A stretch of DNA of 64,000 bases from Patescibacteria group bacterium (GCA_038064875.1 JBBTSC010000001.1:699004-763003), one strand, 5' to 3'; positions 26,705 through 61,159 are shown, counted from the first letter of the stretch. Notes: a model not told the origin generated them from the letters alone. Numbers and translations are program-made.

Positions 26705-26705
26705 T

Positions 26706-27613: not shown

Positions 27614-27638
27614 GCTCATAGGTGGTTAGAATAAAGCC

Positions 27639-29441: not shown

Positions 29442-29447
29442 GAAAGG

Positions 29448-30521: not shown

Positions 30522-30535
30522 TTCAAGGATATCCT

Positions 30536-31756
30536 ATGTTGACTTTCGAATACGAGGCAAAAAACCCTACAACTGGCGAAAAAGTAAAAGCTACTATTCA
30601 GGCAGAATCTGAAGCGGCGGCGGCCAAACTTATAAAGGAGCAATCCCTAACCCCACTTGACATACATGTAGTTGGTGTCGGAGGGTTTAAGCCATTGGCC
30701 AAGCTTAAGAACAGAATAACTGCAAAAGATAAGATTTTGTTCTCACGTCAGATGTCAACGCTTATTAATGCTGGGTTGCCACTAGTTCAGAGCTTAAGAC
30801 AGGTCAATGATCAGACCCAGAACAAAGCGCTTAAAATCGTTATTAGCCAGATAATCACTGATGTCGAAGGCGGTTTGGCTTTTTCCAAAGCCCTAGCCAA
30901 ACACCCCAGAGTCTTTAATAGCATTTATGTCAATTTAGTAGAAGCAGGTGAAGTATCGGGAACGCTTGATATGGCACTATCAAGGATCGCCACTCAACAG
31001 GAAAAGGATGCAGAGATTATTAGTAAAGTTCGCGGAGCTATGGCTTACCCAGCGATAGTTATATTAGTTATGATTGGCGTCGTTGGTTTTATGATCGTAA
31101 AAGTTCTTCCTCAGGTAGAAGTTATTTACAAGGACTTACCGGGTGCGCAGTTGCCACTACTAACCAGAGTGCTTTTAAGTATTTCTCACTTTACGACTAA
31201 ATATTGGTGGTTGATGTTGATATTCTTTGGGCTCGCGGTATTTGTGACTACACGTTACGCTCGTACTGTAGGAGGCAAACAAGTTATTGATGCTTGGAAG
31301 ATGAAAGCATGGCCAGTCGGTAGTCTGTTTATGAAAGTATATATGGCCAGGTTCTCACGTACTGCGACGACACTTGTTGCCAGTGGAGTCCCGTTGATCA
31401 AAGTCCTCGAAGTTGTTGCAGGATCAATCAACAATGTTCATGTAGAAAGATCGATTAACAAAGCGATTGAGAAGGTTAAAGGCGGTAAAGCACTTAGCGA
31501 ATCTATATCAGGTGACCCAAATTTCTTGCCACTAGTGCCAAATATGCTTAAAATCGGTGAACAATCAGGAGCTTTAGAAGACATGATGGAAAAAACAGCT
31601 GATTATTATGAAAAAGAAGTTGATAACCAGATTAAGACAGTATCTACCATAATAGAACCGATGCTGATGGTAGTACTCGGTATCACAGCGTTTATTATAG
31701 TGGCAGCCGTTCTGTTGCCTATATATGGGCTAGCAGGTCAGAATATCATCAAGTAG
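30536..31756 (+). CDS. pilC: Type IV pilus platform protein PilC (T2SS F family)
   Basis: Two T2SF repeats with polytopic TM layout, 406 aa. Confidence 0.9.
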   Translation: MLTFEYEAKNPTTGEKVKATIQAESEAAAAKLIKEQSLTPLDIHVVGVGGFKPLAKLKNRITAKDKILFSRQMSTLINAGLPLVQSLRQVNDQTQNKALKIVISQIITDVEGGLAFSKALAKHPRVFNSIYVNLVEAGEVSGTLDMALSRIATQQEKDAEIISKVRGAMAYPAIVILVMIGVVGFMIVKVLPQVEVIYKDLPGAQLPLLTRVLLSISHFTTKYWWLMLIFFGLAVFVTTRYARTVGGKQVIDAWKMKAWPVGSLFMKVYMARFSRTATTLVASGVPLIKVLEVVAGSINNVHVERSINKAIEKVKGGKALSESISGDPNFLPLVPNMLKIGEQSGALEDMMEKTADYYEKEVDNQIKTVSTIIEPMLMVVLGITAFIIVAAVLLPIYGLAGQNIIK

Positions 31757-31848
31757 ATTGGGGAAAAGTCTTGCATTGTTGTTATTGGTAAGGTATTTTG
31801 ATATTGTATAAGCATTAACATAATAAAATGTATAAAGGGATGGGAAAT

Positions 31849-32316
31849 ATGAAAGATCTAATAAAAAAACAAAAGGGATTCACTATCATCGAGGTATTGA
31901 TAGTCTTGGCGATTGCTGGGCTTATCATTTTGATAGTTTTCTTGGCTGTACCTGCGTTGCAGAGAAACAGTCGTAATACGCAAAGAAGCAATGATGCTTC
32001 ACAGGTAGGTGGTGCACTAAATGAATGTTTGGCTAACAGAAACGGTCAAATGGCATCTTGTGACACAACTGGCGAGCTACAAGCTCTGGGTCTAGATACA
32101 GCTAAGCTAGGTCAGTTAACAGTTGTTAACGTAACTGCTGGTGCTCCGACAGATCCTGGTGCAACTGTGACAAACACCATTAACGTAGGTTTTGGGTCAC
32201 GCTGTAACGCCGATGGAGCTGGTGTTGGTGGTGGATCACCAAGACAAGCAGCTGGATTGTATCGTGTTGAGATCCAAGGTAGCAACAACGGTGCTGTGCG
32301 TTGTATAGAGTTCTAG
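31849..32316 (+). CDS. pilA: Major type IV pilin
   Basis: Short leader MKDLIKKQKG|FTIIEVLIVLAIAGL (Gly-1, Phe+1, Glu+5). Two Cys pairs including a C-terminal disulfide loop. A strong terminator follows. Confidence 0.85.
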   Translation: MKDLIKKQKGFTIIEVLIVLAIAGLIILIVFLAVPALQRNSRNTQRSNDASQVGGALNECLANRNGQMASCDTTGELQALGLDTAKLGQLTVVNVTAGAPTDPGATVTNTINVGFGSRCNADGAGVGGGSPRQAAGLYRVEIQGSNNGAVRCIEF

Positions 32317-32344
32317 ATAGCTAAGAAAAAAATACATAATATCA

Positions 32345-32372
32345 AAAAGGCTCGTTTGTCGGAGCCTTTTTT
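32345..32372 (+). terminator. Intrinsic terminator after the major pilin gene
   Basis: AAAAAGGCTCG-tttgt-CGGAGCCTTTTTT. Confidence 0.65.
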
Positions 32373-32381
32373 GATATCATA

Positions 32382-33221
32382 GTGCTAATGATTATTGGGA
32401 TATTAATAGTTCTGGGGCTGTGTTTCGGTAGTTTTGTAAATGCTCTCGTCTGGCGGGTGCATAAGCAGAGTCTGCCAAAATCAAAGAGGCCAAAGAATAC
32501 CAATCTCTCAATAGTTAGAGGTAGATCGGTCTGCGTAAATTGTCAGCACAGTTTGAGCCATATTGATCTTATACCCGTAGTTGGCTGGGTGCTACTTAGA
32601 GGAAAATGCAGATACTGTAAAAAATCCATATCATGGCAGTATCCATTTATAGAAGTTCTGACGGCTACTGTCTTCGTAGCTTCTTACCTGTTGTGGGAAT
32701 TCGAAGTCAAAGGCTCAGAGATTGTAATCTATGGCTTATGGCTTGCCGTGCTAACAAGTTTAGTTGCTCTAGCTCTATATGACACAAAATGGATGATATT
32801 GCCGAACAGAATCATGAAATACTCTTTTGGTTTAGCGTTTGTTTTAGCTCTAGCCACTATTGCGATTAGAAATGATGGGTACTCTACCTCTATAATCAAT
32901 CTCGTTTTATCGGTAGTTATCAGTGGAGGGCTTTTTGCTCTACTATTTTATATATCAAAAGGTAAGTGGATCGGTGGCGGTGACGTAAAGCTCGGCTTTG
33001 TTCTCGGTTTTGTAGTCGCCACCCCGGTGTATGCTTGCCTAATGCTATTCATAGGGTCACTGTTGGGCTGTCTAGTGGCAGTGCCAGCTATACTATTTGG
33101 TTCCAGAACCATGCAGACGAAGATTCCTTTTGGTCCTTTTCTGATAGTCGCAACAGTGATTGTCTACCTTTTTGGAAGAGAAATATCAGAAGCTTATTTG
33201 CGTCTCCTTGGAATCTCATAG
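32382..33221 (+). CDS. pilD: Prepilin peptidase (A24 family)
   Basis: Paired CxxC motifs (CVNCQH...CRYCKK). Catalytic Asp contexts LALYDTKWMILP and GGGDVKLG. Polytopic membrane protein. The start may be ATG 32388. Confidence 0.9.
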   Translation: MLMIIGILIVLGLCFGSFVNALVWRVHKQSLPKSKRPKNTNLSIVRGRSVCVNCQHSLSHIDLIPVVGWVLLRGKCRYCKKSISWQYPFIEVLTATVFVASYLLWEFEVKGSEIVIYGLWLAVLTSLVALALYDTKWMILPNRIMKYSFGLAFVLALATIAIRNDGYSTSIINLVLSVVISGGLFALLFYISKGKWIGGGDVKLGFVLGFVVATPVYACLMLFIGSLLGCLVAVPAILFGSRTMQTKIPFGPFLIVATVIVYLFGREISEAYLRLLGIS

Positions 33222-33271
33222 AATTGCTATGAAAACATCTTAGAATCAGTTGTATCTAAGCATACCGCTTG

Positions 33272-33280
33272 TGCTATAAT
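33272..33280 (+). promoter_or_regulatory. Extended -10 (TGCTATAAT) 7 nt upstream of ATG 33288
   Basis: TGnTATAAT with no SD. Confidence 0.4.
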
Positions 33281-33287
33281 TTAAGGT

Positions 33288-34097
33288 ATGAAACTCTTTG
33301 GGAGAACAAGAGTCTTGGGGGGCGTTAAGAGTGTAGACGGCTACACCATAATTGAAGTTATGATATTTCTGGTTGTCTCAGCTGGACTTCTCATCGCAGT
33401 TTTGGGTCTAATCAGTGGACAACAACAAAGAACACGTTTTATAACAGGGGTCAACGATTTTGATTCTCAAATTCAGGATATGATCAACGATGTAGAAGTC
33501 GGCTATTATCCTGCTGAAACAATAGAAAGTGCCGGGACAAATAGCGGAAGGATATTTTTAGGTAAAGCGATCCAGTTCCACAGAAATACTGCTACAAATG
33601 AAGTCAGTGTATACCGCGAAATGACAATAGAAGGTGATGCAACTATAGGCACGCCACCAAGAGATGTAAGTAGCCTAAGTGAGGCTAACCCAAGAGCTCT
33701 TGCTGGGGTTGAATCAGAGCACCAGCTTGTCAATGGAGTAGAGCTGACAAGCATTCGCTACGGAGAAAGTGGAGATATCAGCCATGGTTTTGCGATTGTC
33801 TCTGGAATATCTAGTGACGGCAAGAAATCTTCTGGATCTAGAGGATTGCTCGCAAGGATAGATATTAACACGGAGGGATCATTACCTGCCGTTATAGGTA
33901 GTTTAGGTACAGGAGATCCGGTTGGTGATGCGAGCGGTGGCATGATTTTTTGCTTGCGAGAAGGTGGCGGTGGTAGAGTGGCAGCAGTTGCTCTAGGGAT
34001 GGCTTTAGAGAGTGGATCAGCTGTGAGTACAGGCCAAAGAAATACCACCAACATATATTATGCAGATGAAGCCGAGCAGTTGGGATGTACAGGATGA
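33288..34097 (+). CDS. Minor pilin-like protein (prepilin-type N-terminus)
   Basis: VDG|YTIIEVMIFLVVSAGLL class III signal with Glu+5. Confidence 0.65.
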   Translation: MKLFGRTRVLGGVKSVDGYTIIEVMIFLVVSAGLLIAVLGLISGQQQRTRFITGVNDFDSQIQDMINDVEVGYYPAETIESAGTNSGRIFLGKAIQFHRNTATNEVSVYREMTIEGDATIGTPPRDVSSLSEANPRALAGVESEHQLVNGVELTSIRYGESGDISHGFAIVSGISSDGKKSSGSRGLLARIDINTEGSLPAVIGSLGTGDPVGDASGGMIFCLREGGGGRVAAVALGMALESGSAVSTGQRNTTNIYYADEAEQLGCTG

Positions 34098-35713
34098 TAG
34101 CTTTATTCAAAAGAAATCAGCAAGGTGACACTATTATGGAAGTGTTGATCTGTATGGCAATGCTTGGATTTATGCTAGGCACCGCTTTCACTCTAACGAA
34201 TCGTAATCAGCTCAGTGCTAGAAGCTCTCAAGAGCGTGCAGAGGCTACTCGCATAGCAGAGAAACAACTAGAATACCTAAGGACTTACTACGCAAAGAAC
34301 TCCATTGGTAACCCAATAACAATAGATGAAAATTTCTGTTTCAAGAGTGATGGTGGTGGTGATGACGGCCAATATGTCATGAACGATAGAGATCCCAAAT
34401 CTACTGGCGAAGACCCAGAGTCAGAATATATTGATGATTGTAGGGCAAGTACTAACGGGTACAGCTATAGGATTAATATCTGGAAGGCTGGTACCGCTGA
34501 TGCAGGAAGCCTCGGAGCAAGACCATCAGCAAGCGTCATAACTGTTCGCTGGGACAGTTTGACCAAAACAGAGCCAGAAGAAGTAAAAGTGTATTACACG
34601 ATAGATCAGCTGTCTGCTGGTTATTACGGCAGTGAGCTTGGCTCTGGTGGCGGGCTTGGTCTGACTCCGGCTTGTGGAGATGGTATTGAAAACGATGGTG
34701 ATGGCTTCATTGATATGCTTGATGTGGGTTGTACAAGCCTAACAGATAGTTCAGAAGTAGATCCGACTCCATCCTTAGCTAGTTTTCCTGTCAACTTAGC
34801 TCTATGGGCCAATTCATATCCGACACCACATGAGTATCCTGACGGTGCAAACCCTGACAACAGTCAGATAGGAGTGAGCCCTCATCCCCTCGGAGGAGTC
34901 ATCGACGTAAACTTAAGTGGTCAAAGTGGCGCAAGGAATCTAGTCATCAGCTATCAAAATGAAGCAGGATGGGGAGGTCCACCGAATAGCTCCGCGTCTT
35001 CATTTATACCAGACTATAAGAGTTATGAGATCAAATATTGCGTAGCACCAAGTCGTGGCGCATGTAGTACGTGGACCAGGGCTTATTTGCCTGTCAACAT
35101 GAACAACCCTAATTCAGCATTAGCATCTAGCCCGTTGGGCGTCAATATCAGCCCAGGTGATCATCTGTATATTGCTTGGATCAACAACCACTGGACGAGC
35201 ATAAATGGCATTGGACTTGACCCTAATTTACGCATAAATTCAGTTTCTTCTTACACAGTTGTACCTACTGCGACCTATAACAATAGTAGAAATGGTAGTG
35301 ACTATGTTGCTTGTAGTCCGGCAACTAGTTTTGGCGATGGTCTAGATGGGTGTATCAGGTCTGCACCTTCTGTATATGCGTACAGAATGTTCAATAGCCT
35401 GAACTATACTTTGCCGAGCATATCTTCTGGCCCTATTAATGTTGAGATAAGGTATCGCAACAGAGCAAACGCGACACTTACTAATGTGCTACCTAACGGG
35501 GTATATTCTCTAAGGCTGGGCGGGGGGTCATATCAAACAGGCCTACTTCTACCTACAATAGGCGCCAATACAGGGCAGAGGACTTATGTAGGACAAATCT
35601 ACGTTCCTTCATCTATAGAAAACTTGTATTTTGCTTGGGATAACGATTATTACAATGTGGGTGCGTCTATTGACCATAACGTACAGATAGATTCAGTGAG
35701 GATTTACCGATGA
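34085..35713 (+). CDS. Large pilin-like protein (542 aa), candidate pilus-associated adhesin
   Basis: QG|DTIMEVLICMAMLGF prepilin-like N-terminus. CGDGIENDGDGFIDMLDVGC metal-binding-like motif. Large beta-rich C-terminal region. Confidence 0.6.
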   Translation: MYRMIALFKRNQQGDTIMEVLICMAMLGFMLGTAFTLTNRNQLSARSSQERAEATRIAEKQLEYLRTYYAKNSIGNPITIDENFCFKSDGGGDDGQYVMNDRDPKSTGEDPESEYIDDCRASTNGYSYRINIWKAGTADAGSLGARPSASVITVRWDSLTKTEPEEVKVYYTIDQLSAGYYGSELGSGGGLGLTPACGDGIENDGDGFIDMLDVGCTSLTDSSEVDPTPSLASFPVNLALWANSYPTPHEYPDGANPDNSQIGVSPHPLGGVIDVNLSGQSGARNLVISYQNEAGWGGPPNSSASSFIPDYKSYEIKYCVAPSRGACSTWTRAYLPVNMNNPNSALASSPLGVNISPGDHLYIAWINNHWTSINGIGLDPNLRINSVSSYTVVPTATYNNSRNGSDYVACSPATSFGDGLDGCIRSAPSVYAYRMFNSLNYTLPSISSGPINVEIRYRNRANATLTNVLPNGVYSLRLGGGSYQTGLLLPTIGANTGQRTYVGQIYVPSSIENLYFAWDNDYYNVGASIDHNVQIDSVRIYR

Positions 35714-36378
35714 GAAAACATGTACTAACCAATCAGAGAGGTTTCACAATACTTGAGCTGATCATTGCTTCAACGGTATTTAGCACCATAATGTTGCTCG
35801 CCACCACCGGACTTATTCAGATAGGTAGAACCTACCACAAAGGCCAGATAACAGCTAAAACCCAGGAAGCAACAAGGGGAGTTATAGAAGAGATTTCAAG
35901 AGAAGTGCAGTTTTCAAATAACGCTGTCCAACAATCTGTTGAGGCTGACTATAGTGCATCGCTTAATGTTGTTAAGGTTAGAGCGGTCTGTGTCGGCAAT
36001 ACTCGCTACACTTTTGTTACAAATCAACCCAGGGCGAAGCTGGCTCAAGCAGACGATATATCAGCAACTTCTCCGACCCTAAGACACTTACTTTGGGCGG
36101 ATAGGAAGTTAGATAGCGATCCTTGTGTTGCATCAAACCTCAATCTAGCAAATCCAAGCAATGGGAGGGAGCTATTGGCTCAAGGTATGCGACTTACTAA
36201 CTTTAGAGTTCAGCAAGCAGGCGAGAACGTAAATATTGATATAAAGATATACTATGGTGACTATGATCTTGCCGGAGGACTCGCGAGCCAAGGTACTGAT
36301 TTTTGCGAATCAAGCAAAACTGGCGGTCAATTTTGTTCCTCTAGTGAGCTAAGTACAGTTGTGAGAAGGAGAATATAA
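35710..36378 (+). CDS. Minor pilin (PilW-like)
   Basis: QRG|FTILELIIASTVFSTIMLL. ATGA overlap with the upstream gene. Confidence 0.7.
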   Translation: MRKHVLTNQRGFTILELIIASTVFSTIMLLATTGLIQIGRTYHKGQITAKTQEATRGVIEEISREVQFSNNAVQQSVEADYSASLNVVKVRAVCVGNTRYTFVTNQPRAKLAQADDISATSPTLRHLLWADRKLDSDPCVASNLNLANPSNGRELLAQGMRLTNFRVQQAGENVNIDIKIYYGDYDLAGGLASQGTDFCESSKTGGQFCSSSELSTVVRRRI

Positions 36379-37392
36379 GTGTACTATAAAGATGATATGA
36401 GGGCACGACGGGTGAGCTTAAAAGATGATCAGTCAGGCATGGTAGCTTTTGTAGTTACCTCTTTTATCATTATTATGATGAGTTTGCTCGTACTGGCTTT
36501 TTCACAAAATACACGTCGTGAGCAGAGACAAGCTCTTGATCGACAGCTTTCAACTCAAGCTTACTATACTGCAGAATCAGCAATAAATGAGACTATAAAA
36601 TACATAAAAGATACTCCTGCTTCAGAATCTGAGAAAGATGATTGTGCTCCTGTTGGAGGAGGTGTTTTGGAAGCACAAGATACTGCAGGAGTATTCACCT
36701 ACACTTGTGTGATGTGGGATAAAGACCCCGAGCAACTAGTATTCCAAAACCTAGATGACCAAGGTAAAATAATCTCTCTGCAAGCCAATGGAGACCTTAG
36801 AAACATCAGGATTACTTGGGAGGATGTCAGTGGTGGTACAGTATCTGCCAGTTGCAACTCACCGTCCCTACATACATTCCCTCAATCCGGTAGCTATAGT
36901 TGTGGTCTGGGTATGATAAGAGCGGCTATTCTTCCTTTTACAGGTGATAGGGCGAGCCTGGTCAATTCTACATATACTGGATTTCTTCGTCCACAAAATA
37001 ATGCCACACCAGTCACAACCACCTTTTCCAGACATGATGCTGGCAGTGGCGGACAAGGTAATGTTATAGGTGCTTCGTGCACTGGCACAACCTGTACGGT
37101 AACAATAAACAATCTGCCTCTAGGTAAAAATTTCTTGTTCATCAAAACAGCTTATAAAAAATCAAATGTGACAATTGAAGGGGTTCTGACTTCCGGTGCT
37201 GTAGCGCAGTTTACAGAAGGACAAATAGAAATAGATGCAACAGCCCGGGCCAGTGATGTCATAAAACGTATCAAAGTAGCTGTTCCTAAAATAAGCTATA
37301 ACAATCCTGGTTACTCTGCAGACGTCATGGATGGAATCTGTAAAGATCTTGAAGTCTGGCCAACAGGCTCAGGTGGCTCTTGCCACAATTAA
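36379..37392 (+). CDS. PilX-like pilus assembly protein
   Basis: GTG start abutting the previous stop. N-terminal TM SGMVAFVVTSFIIIMMSLLVLAF followed by LSTQAYYTAESAINE (PilX_N-like). Confidence 0.55.
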   Translation: MYYKDDMRARRVSLKDDQSGMVAFVVTSFIIIMMSLLVLAFSQNTRREQRQALDRQLSTQAYYTAESAINETIKYIKDTPASESEKDDCAPVGGGVLEAQDTAGVFTYTCVMWDKDPEQLVFQNLDDQGKIISLQANGDLRNIRITWEDVSGGTVSASCNSPSLHTFPQSGSYSCGLGMIRAAILPFTGDRASLVNSTYTGFLRPQNNATPVTTTFSRHDAGSGGQGNVIGASCTGTTCTVTINNLPLGKNFLFIKTAYKKSNVTIEGVLTSGAVAQFTEGQIEIDATARASDVIKRIKVAVPKISYNNPGYSADVMDGICKDLEVWPTGSGGSCHN

Positions 37393-37407
37393 AGCTATAC
37401 AACAAGA

Positions 37408-38322
37408 TTATGATTTTTTACGATGGAACTTTTCGTGAACGCTTTTTAGATGAGGATCAGTTATATGAGTGTAGATCTGGGTAGTTGAGATATTACTGTG
37501 TCCTAGCATTGCTTGGACTGACCTAAGATCAGCTCCGTTCATCAGAAGATCCGTTGCATAAGAGTGACGGAGTGTGTGAGGTGAAACATGCTTGGTAATT
37601 CCAGCTTTCAGCGCGTAACTTGCAACCAGCCTTTGGACACTTCTAGGTGTCAAGCGCATAAAGTTACCGGTCTGATCAATTCGTTTGACACCGCCTACTC
37701 TTGCAAAGAGTGGTGGGCTTGAATCAGTACGTTTTTCCAGGTACTTTCTTATCCAGTCGGATGCTTCTTCGCTGATAAATATAGGACGATCTTTTTGTCC
37801 CTTACCTCTTACCATAAATTCTCGGCGAACTAAATTGATATGATCACGATTAAGATTGGTAAGTTCTGATACACGAAGACCGCTAGAGAAAAGTAGTTCA
37901 AGTATCGCTCTGTCCCGAAGTCCAGCCAATGTTTCAGTATTTGGTTGAGCTAGAAGTTGCTCCATCTCATCTTGGTTTAAAAAAGTAACTTGTACTCGCT
38001 TAGTCCTAGCAAGTTCAATTTTATCCGAACTAATAACTTTTAAATCTCTCTTTGTGCAGTATTTCAAAAAACTACGGAGGGCAATTAAATGATAATTTTG
38101 AGTATTTTTTTGTAACTCCTCAGAGGTATTGGTACCAAGTCTGTTGAGCCAGAGACGCCATTTTCGGATCAATTCAGGCGTTATTTCACTAACATTAATA
38201 TCTCCCGCAAAATCTACGAGCCTGGTAAGATAATGCCTATAATTATCAATGGTTTTGAGAGATCTGTTTTGCTCAATCTCCATATGCTCTAGATATTCTT
38301 CGATCATTGATTCAAGCTTCAT
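37408..38322 (-). CDS. Tyrosine recombinase, XerC/XerD family
   Basis: N-terminal SAM-like domain. Catalytic RxxxR...HTLRHSYATDLL...LGHSNISTTQIYTH. Confidence 0.9.
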   Translation of the reverse strand: MKLESMIEEYLEHMEIEQNRSLKTIDNYRHYLTRLVDFAGDINVSEITPELIRKWRLWLNRLGTNTSEELQKNTQNYHLIALRSFLKYCTKRDLKVISSDKIELARTKRVQVTFLNQDEMEQLLAQPNTETLAGLRDRAILELLFSSGLRVSELTNLNRDHINLVRREFMVRGKGQKDRPIFISEEASDWIRKYLEKRTDSSPPLFARVGGVKRIDQTGNFMRLTPRSVQRLVASYALKAGITKHVSPHTLRHSYATDLLMNGADLRSVQAMLGHSNISTTQIYTHITDPHLKSVHEKFHRKKS

Positions 38323-51286: not shown

Positions 51287-51624
51287 TCAGACTATCGGCT
51301 GATCGCTCATTTTTGAGAGGAAAGTCCGGGCAACATAGAGGAGGACAGTTGTTAACGGCAACCGGAGGAGACTCTAGGGAAAGTGCCACAGAGACAATAC
51401 CGTCCCGCTTGCGGGATAAGGGTGAAAAGAGTGAGGTAAGAGCTCACAGTCGTTTATGGTGACATAGACGAGAGGTAAACCCTGTCTGTTGCAAGGAGAG
51501 ATGTAGATCATAGGTTCCTCGCTTTCTATGTCTCAGTTAACCGCTAGAGGTGGTTGGCAACAATCATCCAAGATAGATGATCAGCCCTTTTTTAAGGACA
51601 AAACCCGGCTTATAGATAGTCTGA
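51287..51624 (+). ncRNA. rnpB: RNase P RNA, bacterial type A
   Basis: P1 TCAGACTATC/GATAGTCTGA, P2 GGCTGATC/GATCAGCC. Universal GAGGAAAGTCCGGGC and ACAAAACCCGGCTTA (P4) motifs. Confidence 0.9.
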
Positions 51625-51629
51625 TAATT

Positions 51630-52822: not shown

Positions 52823-54334
52823 TTACAAAATTGCGTCTTTTTTTCTATACTGCAATGCCTCTGTAAGGTGAGAAAGCTCGATGTTTTCTGAGCTATCGAT
52901 ATCAGCTATTGTTCTGGCTACTTTGAGTATCTTCATATAGCTTCTTGCAGATAGAATGAGTTTTTGAGCAGCTGAGTTAAAGAAATCTTGTGTCTGGTCG
53001 TCTAATTTACAGTATTTTTTAACGTCCTTGTTAGAAAGTTCATTATTCAATTTTCCAGATCTTTTGAGTTGAATTTCTCTTGCATCGCTAATGATTTTAC
53101 GCCAGTCTCTTTTACTAACTGCGCTATCTTCTAGTAAGCGAGAGTGTTTAACCTCTGTAACTCCTACATAGAGGTCAATCCGATCTAGTATTGGACCTGA
53201 TATTTTTTGCTGATATCTAATGATGTTGTGTGGAAGGCACGAACATTCTTTCTGACTCCCCCAGTATCCACAAGGGCAGGGATTCGCTGTTGCTATCAAA
53301 ATGAATTTGGCGGGGAATACGACAGAATCCTTTACTCTGGCTACTGTTATTTCCTTATCTTCAAGAGGTTGTCTTAAAGCTTCGATAACTCTTTTATCAA
53401 ATTCTGGTAATTCGTCCAAGAACAAAACCCCATGGTGACTAAGGCTTATTTCTCCTGGCTTGGGGTGCTGTCCTCCCCCTATGAGAGAGATATGGCTCGA
53501 GCTATGGTGGGGTGATCTGACAGGCCTTCTAGTAATAATTGTTTCATAATTTTTACTGACAAGACTATGTAAATGAGTTATCTCTAGAGCCTCATTTTTT
53601 GTTAGACCTGGAAGTATGTTTACGAAAGCTTTAGCAAGCATACTTTTACCGCTTCCGGGAGGACCGTTAAGAAGGAGGTTATGGTGTCCGGCGCCAGCAA
53701 TGACCATTGCTCGTTTTGCTTGATCCTGATCAATAATGTCGTCCAAAGTCACACTTTGTTCTTTAGGTAAATCACCTTCGGCTATATTTGAATTTGCCTC
53801 CGACTTAATAAAAGGAAGTGGAGTACTATCATTAAGTAGCTCATATAGTGTGCGTAGATTGCTAACTTCCCAGATAAATACCTCGGGTATTATCCTAGCT
53901 TGATTTGCATTGCCTCTGGGAATAATAAAGTTTTTGTACCCAAGTCTCTTAGCAGCGATAATTCTCCCAATAATCCCACGTATTGCTTTTACTTCTCCGT
54001 CTAGGCCGAGTTCACCCATAATGATAGTTTTTTCTGGTAGCCTTACTTTAATCATATCCGAAGCTTTTAGAATCGCCAGAGACATGGGAAGGTCGTAGCT
54101 AGATCCTTCTTTGGGTATGTCAGAAGGAGCCATATTTATAGTTATTTTTTTGCGAGGTAATTTGATCCTGCTTGCAACAAAAGCGTTCCTAATTCTTTCT
54201 TTTGCCTCATCAATAGATTTGCTACCTAGCCCCACAATAATGATATTTGGTAGTGAGTTGGACAGGGCACATTCAACGTCAATAATTAACGCTTCGCTAC
54301 CACTTTCTAGTACCGACTGAACTTTGTTTTTCAT
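52823..54334 (-). CDS. comM: Mg-chelatase-like ATPase YifB/ComM
   Basis: N-terminal Lon-protease-like domain, Walker A GPPGSGKS, Walker B VLFLDELPEF, and a C-terminal ChlI-type helical domain. Confidence 0.9.
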   Translation of the reverse strand: MKNKVQSVLESGSEALIIDVECALSNSLPNIIIVGLGSKSIDEAKERIRNAFVASRIKLPRKKITINMAPSDIPKEGSSYDLPMSLAILKASDMIKVRLPEKTIIMGELGLDGEVKAIRGIIGRIIAAKRLGYKNFIIPRGNANQARIIPEVFIWEVSNLRTLYELLNDSTPLPFIKSEANSNIAEGDLPKEQSVTLDDIIDQDQAKRAMVIAGAGHHNLLLNGPPGSGKSMLAKAFVNILPGLTKNEALEITHLHSLVSKNYETIITRRPVRSPHHSSSHISLIGGGQHPKPGEISLSHHGVLFLDELPEFDKRVIEALRQPLEDKEITVARVKDSVVFPAKFILIATANPCPCGYWGSQKECSCLPHNIIRYQQKISGPILDRIDLYVGVTEVKHSRLLEDSAVSKRDWRKIISDAREIQLKRSGKLNNELSNKDVKKYCKLDDQTQDFFNSAAQKLILSARSYMKILKVARTIADIDSSENIELSHLTEALQYRKKDAIL

Positions 54335-54382
54335 TCAGTACTTATTATACATTTAATAAATAAATAGTTCATAATCTTTGCC

Positions 54383-54464
54383 TAAAACAAAAACAACCGC
54401 CTGCGAGGAGCGGTTGTTAACAGATTCGTTTTTGTTTTTGAGCACTTTTTTTGTTCAAAGTGCT
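54383..54464 (-). ncRNA. Candidate ~80-nt sRNA or terminating leader upstream of comM
   Basis: Minus strand: a 5' hairpin AGCACTTT/AAAGTGCT (54441-54464), then AACAACCGC-tcctcgcag-GCGGTTGTT followed by TTTTGTTTT (54383-54418). Confidence 0.3.
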
Positions 54465-54470
54465 ACGTAC

Positions 54471-54499
54471 ATAATAATAGTCCTCATGCTTAGTGTCAA
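54471..54499 (-). promoter_or_regulatory. Sigma-70-like promoter driving the hairpin-terminator unit
   Basis: Minus strand: TTGACA (54499-54494), 17-nt spacer, TATTAT (54476-54471). Confidence 0.45.
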
Positions 54500-55185
54500 C
54501 TACTTTTTTTACATTTTTTCTATAAAAATTGAACTAATTTCATACAGGTGCATTTAAATGTGTCAATATATGAATATTTCATGGGATTTTTTGCTATGCG
54601 CAGGTATGGTTTCAGGGCCCAATTTCATAATTTTAGTATGACTAAAATTACATTTTTTGGAGATCGGGAACAAAAGGTTTTTCGGCTGGTTAATAAGTAC
54701 TTTGAATTGAGTAGTTAAAGCAAGCCAAGCGTTAACCAATTAAGAGCTAGCTCATTCACTTAAGAGCCAAGACACATATCAAAAGGCTTATCCCGATTCT
54801 TGGCAATATGAATAGCTAATACTTAGCTAAATAGTGTTTCTGGTAAATAACCAAAATATTTTTAGCTTGGAAAAATACACGTGAGTATATCAATTTTAAT
54901 AAATTAGTTGAAATTGCAAATATGCACCTAATCATAGATTTTATTAATATTTGTTAATTTCCGTTACAAAAAAATAACCACCAGGTCTCTTGCAGACTTC
55001 CAGTCAGGTGCTCGTTTGGAAAAAACAAAATGTTGAAAATTTTCAGGGAAAATCACACATACGTCTAAAAGCTGTAGAGAATATATAGATATATTATGTA
55101 TTCAGCAATAACATTGTGAATAATAGTACAATATTTAATACCAATTTTATTATAGTAATAGTGTAAATAAAACATCTATAGTGTA

Positions 55186-55214
55186 TTGACTTATTATAAT
55201 AAATGTACTAGTAT
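55186..55214 (+). promoter_or_regulatory. Candidate promoter for the 55.4-58.9 kb operon
   Basis: TTGACT, 17-nt spacer, TAGTAT, flanked by four TATAGT motifs. Confidence 0.35.
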
Positions 55215-55400
55215 ATATCTATAGTAATCAAACATATAGTTTGTACAAAAATAAAAAGATTACTAAAAATTTCGCTCTCGGCTAAGCTCACGCTTACCAG
55301 AGCGGTCAGTCAGTCATAGGACGGTAAGCGCTTAGAAGTAATTATAAAGAGCGGTTTTACTGTCCTTGACCTTTTTGTATTTTAATCAAAGGTAAAGAAC

Positions 55401-55730
55401 TTGAACAAAATAATACTTATACTATCCTCAACACTCCTTGCGGTTATGGCAATACTTGTCAATCCAGAGGAGATAAAAATGGCTCAGTTGATGGTTGTAT
55501 TAGTCTTAGTTTTCTCTTTCTTGGTGAGTTTGATGAATATTATTTCACAATTTATCTTCGGTAGAACAGCTAAATCAAAAATCATAGCCCTTTCGTCAAG
55601 CACTTACATATGGTCTGCACTGGCTATGCAATCAGTTGGATCTGGTTCTTTAAAAGATATATCAATTTTCAGCCTTGTATTTATAATCGCTTTCTTCTAT
55701 ATCAAACACAATTTCTCTTTGAACAGGTGA
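55401..55730 (+). CDS. Hypothetical small membrane protein (3-4 TM)
   Basis: TTG start preceded by AAAGGTAAAG. Hydrophobic throughout. Confidence 0.45.
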   Translation: MNKIILILSSTLLAVMAILVNPEEIKMAQLMVVLVLVFSFLVSLMNIISQFIFGRTAKSKIIALSSSTYIWSALAMQSVGSGSLKDISIFSLVFIIAFFYIKHNFSLNR

Positions 55731-55788
55731 TAAACCGCCGGACAAGTATTCATTCTGTCTTTATATATCTGTTATAATACTTCGTATT

Positions 55789-56106
55789 ATGACAACAGAT
55801 GATCAAAGCGATAGTGGACAGCTGTTACCACCGGTGAACGATAATAATCTACCAGTGGACTCTTCTGACGCCTCACAGCCAAATAATCAAGGTACTAGTC
55901 AGCCAGTGCCACCATCTATCCAAGCACCTCAGCAAGATGAAGCAGGTGATGTTGATGTTATAGAGAAAGCATGGATTGAAAAGGCTAAAAAAATTGTTGA
56001 TCAGACGTCAACTGACCCTTTTGAGCAACAGAAAATGCTCAGTAAAGTAAAAGCAGAATATATCAAGAAGAGATTTAATAAGGATATCAAGATAAACGAC
56101 GAATAA
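55789..56106 (+). CDS. Hypothetical protein (105 aa): disordered Pro/Gln/Asp N-half, helical C-half
   Basis: TAATG translational coupling to the downstream ATPase. Confidence 0.5.
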   Translation: MTTDDQSDSGQLLPPVNDNNLPVDSSDASQPNNQGTSQPVPPSIQAPQQDEAGDVDVIEKAWIEKAKKIVDQTSTDPFEQQKMLSKVKAEYIKKRFNKDIKINDE

Positions 56107-58919
56107 TGGCGATATTTATAAGTATACTAGTCGGACTTTTAGTAATTGGCTTAATAACAGGGCCAATTTTATTCTTTCATTCTAGATCTGTTCTGAGAGA
56201 ACAGAAAGATTTTGAGCGAGGGCTTAAAATGGTCACACTATTGATACATTTACCGCCACCAAGTGACGATACTGACATAGGCTCCAGAGACGTTAGAGAT
56301 GTCACTGATGAGAATATATCAAAAGCGGAGATAGTCTATAACATTTTAGCAAGCACCCTCCAGAAGGGATTCAAAAGCAGTTTTTATGGCCAGAGACACA
56401 TATCCTTTGAAATAGTTGGGACTAAAGGCTTCATAAATTTCTATGTAGCTGTACCAATATCACTTGTAGAGGTTGTACATCAGGCTGTTATAAGCGCCTA
56501 TCCATTAGCAAGGCTGGAAGAAGTTGCTGAGCATAATATATTCAGCCCTGTCGGCAAGATAAGCGGAACTCTAGGTGGAGAATTAACTCTTAAAGATAAG
56601 TTTGTCTATCCAATTTCAACTTACCGGGATATAAAGCGTGATCCTATGCACTCTATACTGAATGCTCTGTCATCTTTAGATAAAGAAGATGGTGTTGGTA
56701 TCCAGCTAATGATACGGCCTGCTAATGATGGTTGGCGTAAAACAGCTTCTGAATTCGCTGGCAAAAAGCGTAAAGGACACGAAAGTCACAAGGGTGGAAA
56801 ACTCTTTGCATGGTGGATAAGACAGCTTTTTGAGGCTCTCTGGCACCCTCCAGAAGACAAAAGTGGCGGAGATAGTGGGAATAACCTATCAAGCCACGAA
56901 GAAGCAGTAGTTAATTCTGTAGAGGACAAGACTAAGCACCCAGGTTTTGAGACATCGGTTCGTATTTTGACTTCTTCTAACATTGCTCATAAGTCTCAAA
57001 CACTTCTCAACAACGTAGTTTCAAGCTTTGCTTTGTTCGATGCACCTGGGAAAAATGGATTTAAATACACACCAGCTCAGGACATAGAGAGATTTGCTAC
57101 AGCATATATAATGCGGTTTTTCCCAACTGGACACTCCAAAAACATCTTGAATTCTGTTGAATTGGCGACGATCTTTCACTTTCCGCAACAGGATGATATC
57201 CCTACATCTCAGCTAACCAGGCAAGAATCAAAACAAGTTGATGGCCCAAGGAACGTGCCAGATAACGGACTTTTGCTAGGCTACAATCTTTTCAGAGGAG
57301 TTAAAAAACCAATCAGACTGTCTCATGGTGATAGACAAAGACACATGTATGTTGTTGGACAGACAGGAGTAGGTAAGTCTGTCTATCTGGAAAACTTGGC
57401 ACTGCAAGACATGATAGAAGGAAATGGTTTTGCGTTTATTGATCCTCATGGTGATACTGCTGAAAAATTGCTATCAATGGTGCCAAAAGAGCGCACAGAA
57501 GATGTTATTTATTTCTGCCCGGCAGATACAGATTATCCCTTAGGTCTCAATATCTTTGAGGCAAAGACTGATGATGAGAAAGATTTTGTTATCCAAGAAG
57601 TAATCAATGTTCTATATAAGTTGTATGATCCACAACGCCAAGGGATAATTGGCCCTCGTTATGAGCACATATTTAGAAATGCTGCATTGACTGTAATGGC
57701 GGGACCAGAGGGAGGAACTTTCATAGATATACCAAAGCTTTTTGCTGATCCAGATTTTGTAAACAAGAAACTTGAATATGTGAAAGACCAAAACGTGATT
57801 GATTTTTGGCGTAAAGAGATGGTCCAAGCGAAAAGATCAAATGAATTTGGAGACGTGGTAAGTTGGTTTGTTAGTAAATTCGGTGCCTTCTTGTCCAACT
57901 CAATGATGCGTAATATCATTGGTCAGACCCAGAGCTCATTCGATCTAAGAGAAATCATGGATAACAAGAAGATACTCCTGGTTAACCTCAGTAAGGGAAG
58001 AACCGGTGAGCTTAACTCTAAACTGCTTGGCATGATCTTTGTTATGAAATTCCAAGCTGCTGCTATGAGTAGGGCTAATATTCCTGAGAGTCAAAGAGTT
58101 GACTTCTGTTTATACGTGGATGAGTTCCAGAACTTTTCTACTGATTCATTTGCCACAATAATGTCAGAAGCCAGAAAGTATAGGTTGAGCTTGACTGTCG
58201 CTAACCAGTTTACAACACAGCTAACCGACGAGATTAGAGATGCAGTCTTTGGTAACATGGGTACTATCATAGCGTTTAGAATTGGCCAAAATGACGTTGA
58301 ATCATTGAGTCGCTATTTCCAGCCGATGTTCGACGGTGATGATCTTCTTAGAATACCTAACTATAATACGATTGTTAGAACACTTATCGGCGGAGTTCCG
58401 ACACAACCTTTCAGTATGGCGACCATTCCACCTCTAGGGGATCCAAACAAGGAGTTAGGAACGGCTCTCAGGCAGTTGTCTGCTGCAAAATTTGGTAGAC
58501 CGCGATCAGTAGTAGAGAAAGAGATCTTTGCTAGAATCAGAACCAATTCAAAGTCAGATAGCTCGTTGCAAGCACCTAGCGCAACTAATGGGCCTAGAGT
58601 GAGCTCGCCAAAGCCAAATACACAAGCATCTTTTCTAGATCAGTGGTTGGCTAAAAAGAAACAGCAGGCACCCGCTAGCCCTTCCTCGAAGCCTTCAAGC
58701 CCATCTAGCGCTATTGATACAGCAAGTCAACAGAGTACTAATACAAATCAATCAAATAGCCCTTCTGCTCCTAGCTCAAAGCCATCTTCAGCTTTTGCAG
58801 GAGACCAGGCTCCTTTGAAGCAACCAGAGCCGGGTACTGTAATAGAGCCTGGCAAATCTAAGAAAAGACAACGTGGTAGTGATATCTTTATCGGGAGAGA
58901 TGGCAAGATAGGTCAATAA
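56106..58919 (+). CDS. Membrane-anchored P-loop ATPase of the type IV coupling protein/HerA-FtsK superfamily (TraD/TrwB/VirD4-like)
   Basis: N-terminal TM and a ~390-aa unassigned domain. Walker A VVGQTGVGKS followed by AFIDPHGD. Walker B LYVDEFQNF. EARKYRLSLTVANQ arginine-finger region. Ser/Pro-rich C-terminal tail. Confidence 0.7.
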   Translation: MAIFISILVGLLVIGLITGPILFFHSRSVLREQKDFERGLKMVTLLIHLPPPSDDTDIGSRDVRDVTDENISKAEIVYNILASTLQKGFKSSFYGQRHISFEIVGTKGFINFYVAVPISLVEVVHQAVISAYPLARLEEVAEHNIFSPVGKISGTLGGELTLKDKFVYPISTYRDIKRDPMHSILNALSSLDKEDGVGIQLMIRPANDGWRKTASEFAGKKRKGHESHKGGKLFAWWIRQLFEALWHPPEDKSGGDSGNNLSSHEEAVVNSVEDKTKHPGFETSVRILTSSNIAHKSQTLLNNVVSSFALFDAPGKNGFKYTPAQDIERFATAYIMRFFPTGHSKNILNSVELATIFHFPQQDDIPTSQLTRQESKQVDGPRNVPDNGLLLGYNLFRGVKKPIRLSHGDRQRHMYVVGQTGVGKSVYLENLALQDMIEGNGFAFIDPHGDTAEKLLSMVPKERTEDVIYFCPADTDYPLGLNIFEAKTDDEKDFVIQEVINVLYKLYDPQRQGIIGPRYEHIFRNAALTVMAGPEGGTFIDIPKLFADPDFVNKKLEYVKDQNVIDFWRKEMVQAKRSNEFGDVVSWFVSKFGAFLSNSMMRNIIGQTQSSFDLREIMDNKKILLVNLSKGRTGELNSKLLGMIFVMKFQAAAMSRANIPESQRVDFCLYVDEFQNFSTDSFATIMSEARKYRLSLTVANQFTTQLTDEIRDAVFGNMGTIIAFRIGQNDVESLSRYFQPMFDGDDLLRIPNYNTIVRTLIGGVPTQPFSMATIPPLGDPNKELGTALRQLSAAKFGRPRSVVEKEIFARIRTNSKSDSSLQAPSATNGPRVSSPKPNTQASFLDQWLAKKKQQAPASPSSKPSSPSSAIDTASQQSTNTNQSNSPSAPSSKPSSAFAGDQAPLKQPEPGTVIEPGKSKKRQRGSDIFIGRDGKIGQ

Positions 58920-58939
58920 TCCTTAGGCTTGCTATAGAT

Positions 58940-59512
58940 TTAATAAGCGCTTTTGCGACGAAAGACCAGCTTTAGTAGAATCTCTAAGATAGTCCCAATA
59001 ATAAAGCCACCGACAAATGACATAATTCCAATCATGAAGTTATACTCATAGCCGAAGAAGTAACTTGCCCATAATACCAAGAGGCTAGAGAACAATGAGA
59101 AAGCTCCACCCATAGCTAGTCCTACAGGTCTAGCAACTGTTTTACTAGATATTTCGCTGATAGTGTCTACTGTTGGCCTGTGTACGAATTTGCTTAGGAT
59201 TTTTTGATCAAAAGGTAGTTTTTTCTGAGTTTTTTTGATAATTTGCTTGAATGAGTTATTGCTCAGATCATTTCCAATCATTCGGATGTTGCTATTTGTC
59301 TTTTTTGAGTCGCCAGAGCTTTTTTCTTCGATCTCTTTGCTGGTTTTAGCCTTCTCTTGTGCTGATTTGAGAAGTTCGTCAAGTGTTTCCTTGCTTGCCT
59401 TTTTAGGTAGGGACTCACTAGAATCGTGATTTACTTCTTTTGAGTGTGATTTTTCTTGAGATTTATTATTTGAATCATCAGTCTCATACCCAAAGTTTAT
59501 TTTTTCAGACAT
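58940..59512 (-). CDS. Hypothetical membrane protein (charged N-terminal half, 2-3 C-terminal TM)
   Basis: 190 aa. Starts 4 nt after the stop of the upstream LPXTG gene. Confidence 0.5.
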   Translation of the reverse strand: MSEKINFGYETDDSNNKSQEKSHSKEVNHDSSESLPKKASKETLDELLKSAQEKAKTSKEIEEKSSGDSKKTNSNIRMIGNDLSNNSFKQIIKKTQKKLPFDQKILSKFVHRPTVDTISEISSKTVARPVGLAMGGAFSLFSSLLVLWASYFFGYEYNFMIGIMSFVGGFIIGTILEILLKLVFRRKSAY

Positions 59513-59515
59513 TTA

Positions 59516-61159
59516 CTAGTTCCCCCCGTAAGTAAAATCTTGTTTTATTATGCCCAGTTCTTTACTAAAGAGTCTGCTTCTTGCAAAAAAGTAGCTACTA
59601 ACAGTTGTCACTGCGAAGGCAAAGAATATGCTTTGACCCGGGCCAGTATTTGGTAGTTGTTCGATTTGTTTAAGCGTAGGGCAGTCCATATCCATAGATA
59701 TTTCGTTGCCGTATCCATTTTGAATCTTACAATCGTAGCTAGTAGAGCTAGCGCTTGGAGCATGGGTCACAGGTATACTATCTTTAATCTTAACTCGGAA
59801 TGTCTTGATTAGTTCACCTTTGGCTGGGATTGTTTGGTTATCCCAATAGACAACCTTTGTTACTGGGTTGAATTTGCCACCTTGAGTTTCTAGATAAGCC
59901 TGGTCAACATCGGCGTAATCCAGGATGTCTCCTATGTAATCTTCAACTAGATATTTCTTCTTCTCAATAGTATTTGTATTAGTAGTTATCAAGCTATACT
60001 CAATGACATCACTTGCATGAACTTTTGTAGCTAGGGTTTGTTCAGGACTTAAATTTTGCGTGACATTGCGTGCTTTCTTCTGTCTGCCTGGAGTCGTACA
60101 TTTCGGGTCATCAGCGGTGAGCTTAGGGTCATCAACACAGACACACTTAGGGTCGTCAGGCTTCAGGTTAGGGTTGTTAGGGCACTTTGGCTCTTTACAG
60201 TTAGGGTCATTTGATTTTATCGCTGGGTTATAAGGGCAGGGCGGTATACATTCTGGACGATTAGGGTTATTGGTACAGTCTTCAGGGACTACTGTTATCG
60301 TTGTTTGACACGCTGGAGCTGTTTTGTCCCCAACAGTACTATTGACCGTTAAAGTAGCTGTGTACGTTATAGGGGCACCGGTATTGTTGGTGTAAGTATG
60401 ATCAATTACTGTTCCATTATGTCTAATAGTTTGTCCATCACCAAAGTTAAAGGTTAATCCATTAACAATATTTGGTAAGTTGGCAGAGTATGCTCCAGTG
60501 AAGCGGACACTAACCGATTTTACTCCAGTCCTTTTATCTCCTGTTAAGTTTGTACATGCTACAGTTGGCTTAGGTGCAGGTGGCTCAGGACCTTCTGCAG
60601 GGCGGTAGGCGATATTACCACAGTCTTTTAGGACCCAAACATACCAATATCTATTATCTGTACCTTTGTGCTTACCAAAGTAGTAGGCTGGTGTACTACC
60701 TTGCCATTCCGCGGCGCTTCTACTATAAAAGGTCTTCCCGCCAAATTGACCTAGATTGTGATCATTTGTGCTTGCAAAGTTTATTCGACCCACTGTTCGG
60801 GTACCTTTAGAACCTTGTTCCTGGAAATTAAAATTAGTGTTCTGAACATTGTCCATGGCGGCGGCATCTAGGCCAAATCTGTTATATAAAGCCTTAACAT
60901 CGGCTTTATGATAATAGTTTGATTTTAAGTCACTAATACTGCTTACTCCTCCAGATATTACATCGTTAGGAGATGCAGCAAGAGACTGCTTTGCGGGTAT
61001 AGAAGTTGCGACTATTTGCACAAAAAAGCTTAGAATAATAAAAAACAATCCAAGCCTTCTTATAGACTGTTCTTGCTGTAACCTTCTTAAATAGAAAGAT
61101 ACTTGATCTATAGAACCGGGATTGAAGCTTAGTTTTGAAACAAATTTGTTGATGCTCAT
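59516..61159 (-). CDS. LPXTG-anchored surface protein with PKD-like domain and Cys/Pro-rich repeats
   Basis: N-terminal signal/anchor. PKD-like TFNFGDGQTIRHNGTVIDHTYT...YTATLTV. Repeats (D/N)P(K/N)C. C-terminal LPNTGPG plus hydrophobic span plus RSR (sortase signal). Confidence 0.7.
   Translation of the reverse strand: MSINKFVSKLSFNPGSIDQVSFYLRRLQQEQSIRRLGLFFIILSFFVQIVATSIPAKQSLAASPNDVISGGVSSISDLKSNYYHKADVKALYNRFGLDAAAMDNVQNTNFNFQEQGSKGTRTVGRINFASTNDHNLGQFGGKTFYSRSAAEWQGSTPAYYFGKHKGTDNRYWYVWVLKDCGNIAYRPAEGPEPPAPKPTVACTNLTGDKRTGVKSVSVRFTGAYSANLPNIVNGLTFNFGDGQTIRHNGTVIDHTYTNNTGAPITYTATLTVNSTVGDKTAPACQTTITVVPEDCTNNPNRPECIPPCPYNPAIKSNDPNCKEPKCPNNPNLKPDDPKCVCVDDPKLTADDPKCTTPGRQKKARNVTQNLSPEQTLATKVHASDVIEYSLITTNTNTIEKKKYLVEDYIGDILDYADVDQAYLETQGGKFNPVTKVVYWDNQTIPAKGELIKTFRVKIKDSIPVTHAPSASSTSYDCKIQNGYGNEISMDMDCPTLKQIEQLPNTGPGQSIFFAFAVTTVSSYFFARSRLFSKELGIIKQDFTYGGN

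Follow-up and report, generated by a model that had tools for sequence, protein, structure and literature searches.

A 64,000-nucleotide stretch from a Patescibacteria group bacterium (GCA_038064875.1 JBBTSC010000001.1:699004-763003; here termed the window) carries, between comM and gyrB, two convergent operons that appear to be separate units. The first operon encodes two small proteins, here named g109 and g105, followed by a membrane-anchored ATPase of the DUF8128 family; the second encodes a surface protein (g547) and a small membrane protein (g190). We regard the operons as separate because their distribution among species, their rates of evolution, and their mutant phenotypes differ. In the reading that we prefer, and to which we give an even chance, the two units are unrelated and the ATPase serves the essential type IV secretion system (T4SS) of Patescibacteria as its coupling or energising ATPase, rather than working as an autonomous translocase. 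An original prediction, made from the sequence of this region, had proposed one envelope module of both operons and an undescribed system. The single module is not borne out, and the claim to novelty stands only in part: the ATPase family is already catalogued (Pfam DUF8128) and orphan type IV coupling protein (T4CP) homologues have been discussed (Quinonero-Coronel et al., 2025; PMC12102498), but the function of the system and the features presented below are undescribed in the literature found. New here are the modelling of DUF8128 as a VirB4-like N-terminal domain, the partner proteins g105 and g109, and a previously uncatalogued RNA upstream of the operon.

All five open reading frames (ORFs) were found at the positions and on the strands originally claimed, and they are not chance ORFs, since they are called and conserved across dozens of genomes. 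The g109-g105-ATPase operon occurs in 74–76 of 77 related species, and the order L20-L35-IF3-comM ... g105-ATPase ... gyrB(-gyrA) is kept in 80 species-representative genomes. Median identity to the window protein is 66% for the ATPase (range 60–82%), which is comparable to the values for L20 (68%), IF3 (70%), and GyrB (80%), with ComM at 50%. The ATPase operon belongs with the housekeeping genes and is inherited vertically; it is no mobile element. The behavior of the g190/g547 pair is different. Among the 68 loci with both the ATPase and gyrB, the pair is present in 51 and missing from 17, neither gene is ever found alone, and the ATPase operon is always kept; the median identity of g190 and of g547 is 31–32%. 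Nor are the five genes co-conserved more widely, as none of the ATPase relatives in other Patescibacteria classes (83 loci, L089–L091 and L093–L172) has an LPXTG/PKD neighbor. The adjacency of the two operons is lineage-wide synteny, and as such is as uninformative as adjacency to gyrB.

The mutant phenotypes are those of Southlakia epibionticum ML1, in which the gene order is yifB, a gap, a small membrane protein, a small protein, an ATPase of ~1000 aa, a protein of ~190 aa and an Ig/PKD-type protein of ~540 aa (both on the minus strand), gyrB, and gyrA (Wang et al., 2023; PMC10633639 Tables S1/S2). Genes SEML1_0140–0144 were matched to the window genes by synteny, sizes, and domain coordinates, that is, by positional orthology. 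In the transposon sequencing (Tn-seq) calls of that study, where ES denotes essential, GD growth-defective, and NE non-essential genes, the ATPase counterpart SEML1_0142 (1019 aa) is ES/ES/ES, SEML1_0141 (139 aa, plus strand) is GD/ES/ES with zero insertions recovered, and SEML1_0140 (117 aa, plus strand) is NE/GD/GD (PMC10633639). Both SEML1_0143 (193 aa, minus strand) and SEML1_0144 (535 aa, minus strand, DUF11/Ig-like) are NE; of the flanking genes, SEML1_0138 (yifB) is NE and SEML1_0145 (gyrB) is ES/ES/ES (PMC10633639). Thus the counterparts of the ATPase and g105 are essential and those of g190 and g547 non-essential (PMC10633639 Table S1), calls that come from a single organism and a single Tn-seq data set, with 8–12 insertion sites in the small genes. 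SEML1_0140–0142 are listed in the supplementary tables and are not discussed in the main text (PMC10633639). The S. epibionticum ATPase resembles that of the window in the position of its P-loop domain (381–800) and in belonging to a family flagged as Patescibacteria-enriched; it differs in having a longer tail (1019 versus 937 aa in total), and the intergenic gap before the operon is ~2.8 kb versus 1.07 kb.

The original assignment of the ATPase to the membrane-anchored TraD/TrwB/VirD4-HerA type was upheld by weak but specific coupling-protein signals, structural superposition, and intact Walker motifs. In Pfam, an identical protein is annotated with PF26449 (DUF8128) covering its N-terminal region. 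Scoring of the homologues of the ATPase yielded more than 7,600; the top 120 share 66–96% identity with it, all but one of these carry DUF8128, and those with names are Saccharibacteria or Patescibacteria. Representatives at 50% identity, searched exhaustively, put the family at 5,398 clusters at E ≤ 1e-30. Relatives at ~40% identity, from lineages that include Kuenen-, Buchanan-, and Kerfeldbacteria and Parcubacteria, combine DUF8128 with PF10412, PF02534, and PF12696. For the window ATPase itself, PF12696 (TraG-D_C) is the sole coupling-protein family model passed (23.9 bits versus a cut-off of 22), PF02534 and PF10412 being unreported in the family scans and carried by distant relatives. 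TIGR03743 (TraD) matches at E = 1.6e-12 but scores 46.7 bits versus a cut-off of 366, and the TrwB structure 1e9r matches at 4.7e-5 over Walker A only. When the family sequence profile was compared with the PDB, TrwB (2e-8) and DotL (6.5e-6) were nearest and VirB4 chains were absent; likewise, no VirB4 family in Pfam or NCBIfam matched the ATPase, the best hit being TIGR03783 (TraG ATPase) at E = 0.018.

AlphaFold2 models of ATPase residues 1–800 (pLDDT 80) and of DUF8128 alone (pLDDT 81) were compared with the PDB using Foldseek. For the model of residues 1–800, the top match is TrwK/VirB4 of R388 (E = 6e-14, ~870 aligned columns), while TrwB, Cagbeta, and DotL cover the C-terminal domain only, with TM-scores of 0.5–0.6 on the target; HerA structures are also among the matches. 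DUF8128 alone gave 14 significant matches, all of them TrwK/VirB4 chains (E 1e-6 to 6e-4, TMq a modest 0.40–0.43), with the next match at E = 6e-3. The VirB4-only structural matches of DUF8128, taken with the TrwB/DotL sequence profile, lead us to regard the modeled ATPase as a hybrid in which a VirB4-like N-terminal domain is joined to a motor of the coupling-protein type. Seven helices at ~489–605 lie between Walker A and Walker B in the model; PF10412 (TrwB_AAD_bind) is matched by relatives only. Because the single transmembrane (TM) helix is followed by positive residues, the bulk of the ATPase should be cytoplasmic, and by analogy with related proteins we would expect it to assemble into a hexameric motor on the cytoplasmic side of the membrane. 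The tails of the Saccharimonadia ATPases are disordered, range from ~140 to >1,000 residues, and are Pro/Ala-rich in the long-tailed relatives. They end in a short conserved motif, DTIxIDRDGN or GEVYVDExGNV in relatives and DIFIGRDGKI in the window, often preceded by GELKIxR, which suggests that the conserved tail end is a tethered binding peptide.

The S. epibionticum T4SS cluster, SEML1_0006–0019, is essential and has no recognizable coupling protein or relaxase (PMC10633639). A coupling role for the ATPase is favored because its essentiality matches that of the T4SS and because the T4SS cluster misses a coupling protein; coupling-protein genes are often unlinked from virB4 (PMC12102498). 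In the arrangement that we propose, unit 1 (55263–58919, plus strand) would comprise an RNA leader, g109, g105, and the translationally coupled DUF8128 ATPase. From a gene of its own, apart from the T4SS cluster, the ATPase would energise a chromosomal, essential, relaxase-less Patescibacteria T4SS or couple substrates to it; g109 would dock the ATPase at the membrane, and g105 would bind through its conserved motif as an adaptor or regulator. Unit 2 (58940–61159, minus strand) would be an accessory surface-protein pair that is independent of the ATPase.

Several observations weigh against a coupling role. Linkage of the ATPase to T4SS genes is absent from the window, from 80 Saccharimonadia loci, and from the 83 loci in other classes. 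In coupling proteins, two TM helices lead directly into the nucleotide-binding domain, whereas the ATPase has one TM helix and ~320 extra residues as the VirB4-like N-terminal domain, which classical coupling proteins lack. The ATPase also falls under the T4CP cut-offs of NF045973 (36.8 versus 250) and TIGR03754 (31.9 versus 647). Among Patescibacteria genomes, T4CP homologues (counted with the t4cp1 and t4cp2 profiles pooled) are found in 2,918 of 3,035 and VirB4 in 2,417 of 3,035, so that more genomes have the former than the latter, and only 148 of 5,713 T4CP homologues are near virB4 (PMC12102498). A private membrane partner and an RNA leader of the operon would also fit an autonomous machine.

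Such a machine is the alternative that survives best: g109, g105, and the DUF8128 ATPase would form an essential translocase derived from VirB4/VirD4, independent of the T4SS and RNA-controlled, acting for example on DNA, protein, or another host-derived macromolecule, or in the cell cycle. We hold this to be a real possibility, though short of probable. Autonomy is favored because of the missing T4SS linkage, the VirB4-like N-terminal domain, which makes the architecture a hybrid unlike classical coupling proteins, and a membrane partner and an RNA that belong to the operon alone. The T4SS genes are never linked, the operon is conserved at housekeeping level, its dedicated membrane and soluble partners co-occur with the ATPase class-wide, and the RNA leader is dedicated to it and conserved. 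The excess of T4CP homologues (96% of genomes) over VirB4 (80%) points in the same direction, but may stem from incomplete genomes and from mixed matches of the pooled profiles. SEML1_0142 is ES at all three time points and most T4SS genes are GD and then ES; however, the latter pattern is also shown by dnaA and is not discriminating. An autonomous translocase has no identifiable substrate or channel component, g109 having only 3–4 TM helices, and chromosome segregation is already covered, as a regular FtsK is present. In its fullest form, in which RNA leader, g109, g105, and ATPase make up a self-contained, essential, Patescibacteria-specific, T4SS-independent translocase that is controlled in Saccharimonadia by a new riboswitch-like or protein-binding RNA class, the proposal is slightly more doubtful.

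That the ATPase instead exports, imports, or assembles something together with the wall-anchored protein, as a single envelope module, is in our view very unlikely. The operons are adjacent and convergent in 51 of the 68 species and in S. epibionticum, and both families are flagged as Patescibacteria-enriched (PMC10633639 Table S1). Set against this are the clean loss of the pair from species that keep the ATPase operon, the opposite Tn-seq phenotypes, and the approximately two-fold difference in conservation. Moreover, g547 carries a signal sequence and a sortase motif of its own, which imply handling by Sec plus sortase, the ATPase relatives in other classes have different neighbors, and by the same reasoning from synteny the ATPase would be tied to gyrB.

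Conservation, synteny, and essentiality exclude two further explanations, each of which we consider to have a negligible chance of being correct. A remnant of an integrative and conjugative element (ICE) or plasmid with a decaying coupling-protein gene might be suggested by the coupling-protein-like domains and by a tyrosine recombinase gene 18 kb away (37408–38322), but the ATPase is intact, strongly conserved (>7,600 close homologues), and fixed between comM and gyrB with the same housekeeping synteny in 80 species-level genomes, relaxase and mating pair formation (MPF) genes are absent, the composition of the genes is not anomalous, and the S. epibionticum counterpart is essential. A HerA-type anti-phage defence ATPase finds some support in weak PADLOC matches to the mad8 (6.7e-12) and HerA models and in the HerA structures retrieved by Foldseek, but the matches span only generic P-loop segments, no Sir2, DUF4297, or nuclease partner is present, and a universal, syntenic, and essential gene is the opposite of what defence islands contain.

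The ATPase operon is preceded by the AT-rich spacer of about 1 kb that the original prediction described (54335–55400, 1.07 kb; GC 0.30–0.31 versus ~0.40 elsewhere). Comparison by blastn with loci whose proteins are 50–70% identical revealed two conserved non-coding elements in the spacer. The first is a structured RNA motif of ~115 nt on the strand of the operon. Its P1 helix, CGCUCU/AGAGCG, surrounds a variable hairpin, GGUCAGUC is invariant and unpaired, and P3 is a long hairpin enclosed by a short P2 (AGCC/GGCU); P2 is weaker, being fully paired in 36 of 75 sequences versus 26 ± 2.7 in shuffles. RNAalifold predicts 20 pairs, with compensatory changes in 8. Pairing is retained in 98.2% of cells versus 31–49% when the partners are slid, and there are 36 compensatory cells versus 8.0 ± 2.3 in shuffles, a number that none of 500 shuffles reaches. 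Searched with a covariance model, each of 76 Saccharimonadia loci has just one copy, on the plus strand, the only Saccharimonadia loci that lack it being those cut by contig ends; the model has a single match in the window and none in the ABY1-type or second-paralogue loci described below.

The median distance from the 3′ end of the RNA to the g109-like ORF is 52 nt, and on this side the RNA is often flanked by GGCUCC, a sequence similar to an anti-Shine-Dalgarno. Among the 4227 covariance models of Rfam 15, none matches the RNA in the window at gathering thresholds, and none gives a meaningful match at E ≤ 5 in 54300–55420. Judged from this conservation and position, the RNA is most simply a candidate new cis-regulatory leader of the ATPase operon, although it may instead be a separate small RNA. 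The second element is best read on the opposite strand, upstream of comM. It comprises a near-consensus promoter-like sequence, TTGACA-17-TATTAT (54499 to 54471), and two conserved hairpins, one of 5 bp and one of 11 bp; the linker between them, CAAAAACAAAAACG, is invariant and the loop of the longer hairpin, CUCGC, is conserved, with compensatory changes at seven pairs across 45 species; a U-run after the element is found only in the window and its closest relative. This element may act as a leader of comM or as a small RNA. The spacer itself was considered as a replication origin and rejected, because the cumulative GC skew climbs steadily across the window with no switch and because DnaA-box matches occur at chance level and are unclustered.

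Both small proteins of the ATPase operon are conserved with it. The g109 position is occupied in 74 loci by an ORF of 110–130 aa with 3–4 hydrophobic helices and the shared motifs TNP..LP and LQSIGQLTxRD. No family in Pfam, NCBIfam, or PADLOC matches g109; the sole hit, to the TrbC pilin at E = 0.09, is not significant, and g109 was not taken for a VirB2/TrbC pilin. The g105 protein consists of a variable, acidic, Pro/Gln-rich, disordered N-terminal half and a conserved helical C-terminal motif of 50 aa with the consensus DLIEKEWVxKAKxIVxxTxxDPxxQxKExxxxKADYxKKRYNKDIK. Its gene is directly 5′ of the ATPase gene in 78 of 80 loci by tblastn (76 by ORF calling), and in the window the g105 stop and the ATPase start share a single base (TAATG). 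Searches of Pfam and PDB profiles found no relatives of g105, the best hit, YoeB at E = 0.06, being non-significant.

The ATPase family has a second DUF8128 paralogue in Saccharimonadia (L092 6001–8793), which is ~37% identical to the window ATPase. Like the latter, it combines DUF8128 with a T4CP-like nucleotide-binding domain and is of similar length; its context is topA, a sigma factor, the ATPase, and HSP20/GNAT, without the g109/g105 partners and without the RNA motif. In S. epibionticum this second member is SEML1_0293, in the context topA/sigma factor/ATPase/GNAT, and it is non-essential (PMC10633639). The T4CP homologue of this organism has been called non-essential and possibly exapted (Quinonero-Coronel et al., 2025; PMC12102498), a statement that seems to fit SEML1_0293 and to overlook the essential SEML1_0142. 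That two paralogues have opposite Tn-seq phenotypes is a point apparently missed in the literature.

The ATPase relatives in other Patescibacteria classes have unrelated housekeeping contexts with varying downstream genes. In ~66 of 75 ABY1-type loci a protein of 155–200 aa is encoded immediately upstream, with a disordered N-terminus and the conserved C-terminus ...WLKxIPGVNKFFLEQEAKIKTDKI. No homology of g105 to this protein was detected (hhalign probability 0.3%), the two being alike in architecture and position only. ABY1-type ATPases are nearer to clade A, which contains the window ATPase, than to clade B (BLAST 540–626 versus 417–488 bits), and clustering agrees; on these scores and the clustering they are tentatively assigned to clade A, that of the essential paralogue. 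A subset of the ABY1-type loci then has a membrane-anchored class-I methyltransferase-like protein and a protein of 200 aa.

In the second operon, g547 was originally described as a sortase substrate, and this is plausible, given its N-terminal hydrophobic signal, LPNTG motif, hydrophobic segment, and RSR, with the motif conserved in orthologues. An LPxTG-type motif lies within the last 70 aa of 43 of 55 g547 orthologues (consensus LPNTGPG...YFFARSRL...KELDIVRxDY). No sortase family is annotated in the 64-kb window, but handling of g547 by sortase is plausible because S. epibionticum encodes two sortases, one of which is essential. The overall layout, an N-terminal signal, an Ig-like/PKD domain, and a C-terminal LPNTG with hydrophobic and basic residues, is that of LPXTG sortase substrates with PKD/DUF11/Ig domains. 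Unlike the usual LPXTG substrates, g547 has an unusually long conserved cytoplasmic tail after the sorting signal (ARSRLxAKELDIVRxDYxxxGG, within 59516–59656) and a constant membrane companion of 190 aa. The g547 protein may remain anchored in the membrane or may have a dedicated partner that recognizes it, possibly g190. The latter has a K/E/S-rich N-terminal half and two C-terminal TM helices, and has no significant match in Pfam or NCBIfam. The two proteins are probably an accessory, fast-evolving, and dispensable pair unconnected with the ATPase, with g547 handled by sortase and g190 as its membrane partner.

The locus lies on a Saccharimonadia (Patescibacteria) chromosome whose closest named relative is a Candidatus Saccharibacteria metagenome-assembled genome. 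To the left of the operons are L20-L35-IF3-comM/yifB, with an RNase P RNA at 51287–51628, and to the right gyrB-gyrA; the convergent stops of the ATPase and g190 genes are separated by 20 nt. The Pfam annotation tables of the window contain no relaxase, VirB4, VirB6, or T4SS pilin family, as originally noted. That the ATPase lies outside any canonical T4SS or conjugative element also holds beyond the window, with no relaxase or MPF gene within 6–10 kb in more than 160 related loci. An ordinary FtsK is encoded at 13350–15569. The window also contains a complete type IV pilus cluster at ~24900–37400 (PilM-like, PilB with MshEN and T2SSE, PilT-like, PilC with T2SSF, N_methyl pilins, and a prepilin peptidase), and the recombinase gene mentioned above, which is XerC-like, follows it. 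The coordinates of the features discussed are collected in Table 1.

Table 1. Genes, protein segments, and non-coding elements of the comM-gyrB region (nt, window coordinates; aa, residues of the encoded protein)
Feature	Position	Strand	Description
Second conserved element	core 54392–54466 (within 54380–54500)	−	upstream of comM
Structured RNA motif	55263–55376	+	~115 nt; candidate 5′ leader of the ATPase operon
g109	55401–55730	+	109 aa; ~3 hydrophobic/TM helices; first gene of the operon
g105	55789–56106	+	105 aa; no hydrophobic helix; N-terminal half low-complexity
DUF8128 ATPase	56106–58919	+	937 aa
ATPase TM helix	aa 2–24		N-terminal hydrophobic stretch
ATPase VirB4-NTD-like domain (DUF8128)	aa ~42–360		alpha/beta in the model
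ATPase FtsK/HerA-superfamily nucleotide-binding domain	aa ~385–800		RecA-like
ATPase Walker A	aa 418–425		GQTGVGKS; invariant in 55 sequences
ATPase predicted helical (all-alpha) insertion	aa ~485–610		inside the nucleotide-binding domain
ATPase Walker B	aa 670–674		YVDEF; invariant in 55 sequences
ATPase disordered tail	aa ~800–937 (nt 58506–58916)		S/P/Q-rich; ends in the conserved motif DIFIGRDGKI
g190	58940–59512	−	membrane protein, 190 aa; second gene of the convergent operon
g547	59516–61159	−	surface protein, 547 aa
g547 signal/anchor	aa 37–55		N-terminal, hydrophobic
g547 PKD domain	aa 208–289 (nt 60293–60538)		PKD_4, 27.3 bits versus cut-off 27
g547 repeats			Cys/Pro-rich
g547 LPNTG	aa 502–506 (nt 59642–59656)		then a hydrophobic segment of 20 residues, RSR, and a tail of 18 aa

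Patescibacteria account for a very large share of bacterial diversity, most of it uncultivated, and the essential genes specific to their lineages, the ATPase operon among them, are largely unexplained. Across Saccharimonadia the operon is as conserved as housekeeping genes; it has relatives phylum-wide and an essential counterpart in the sole genetically tractable member. Should the ATPase prove to energise the T4SS or couple substrates to it, it would offer an entry point to what this essential system transports; if it is autonomous, it would be a new kind of essential translocase. The VirB4-like domain, the two partners, and the upstream RNA provide concrete experimental handles, and the RNA motif, a candidate for a new class of regulatory RNA whose genetic setting is clear, is of use in its own right.

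Compared with known systems, the ATPase resembles the type IV coupling proteins (VirD4/TrwB/TraD/DotL/Cagbeta) in being a membrane-anchored FtsK/HerA-superfamily NTPase; the helices modeled between Walker A and Walker B may correspond to their all-alpha insertion. Unlike them, it is without relaxase or T4SS neighbors and vertically inherited, and its counterpart is essential for growth in S. epibionticum. With VirB4 (TrwK of R388; PDB 7O43, 7O42, and 8RTD) it shares the two-domain layout of an N-terminal domain and a RecA-like C-terminal domain, and small genes including one for a membrane protein precede it, as virB2/virB3 precede virB4. The parallel has limits: homology of g109 to VirB3 or VirB2 is undetectable in family scans, g105 is without a TM segment, unlike VirB3, and there are no T4SS genes nearby. 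The ATPase itself differs from VirB4 in lacking a sequence-level VirB4 signal and in having its own N-terminal TM helix, and the T4SS cluster of this genome lineage has a separate bona fide VirB4 (PMC12102498).

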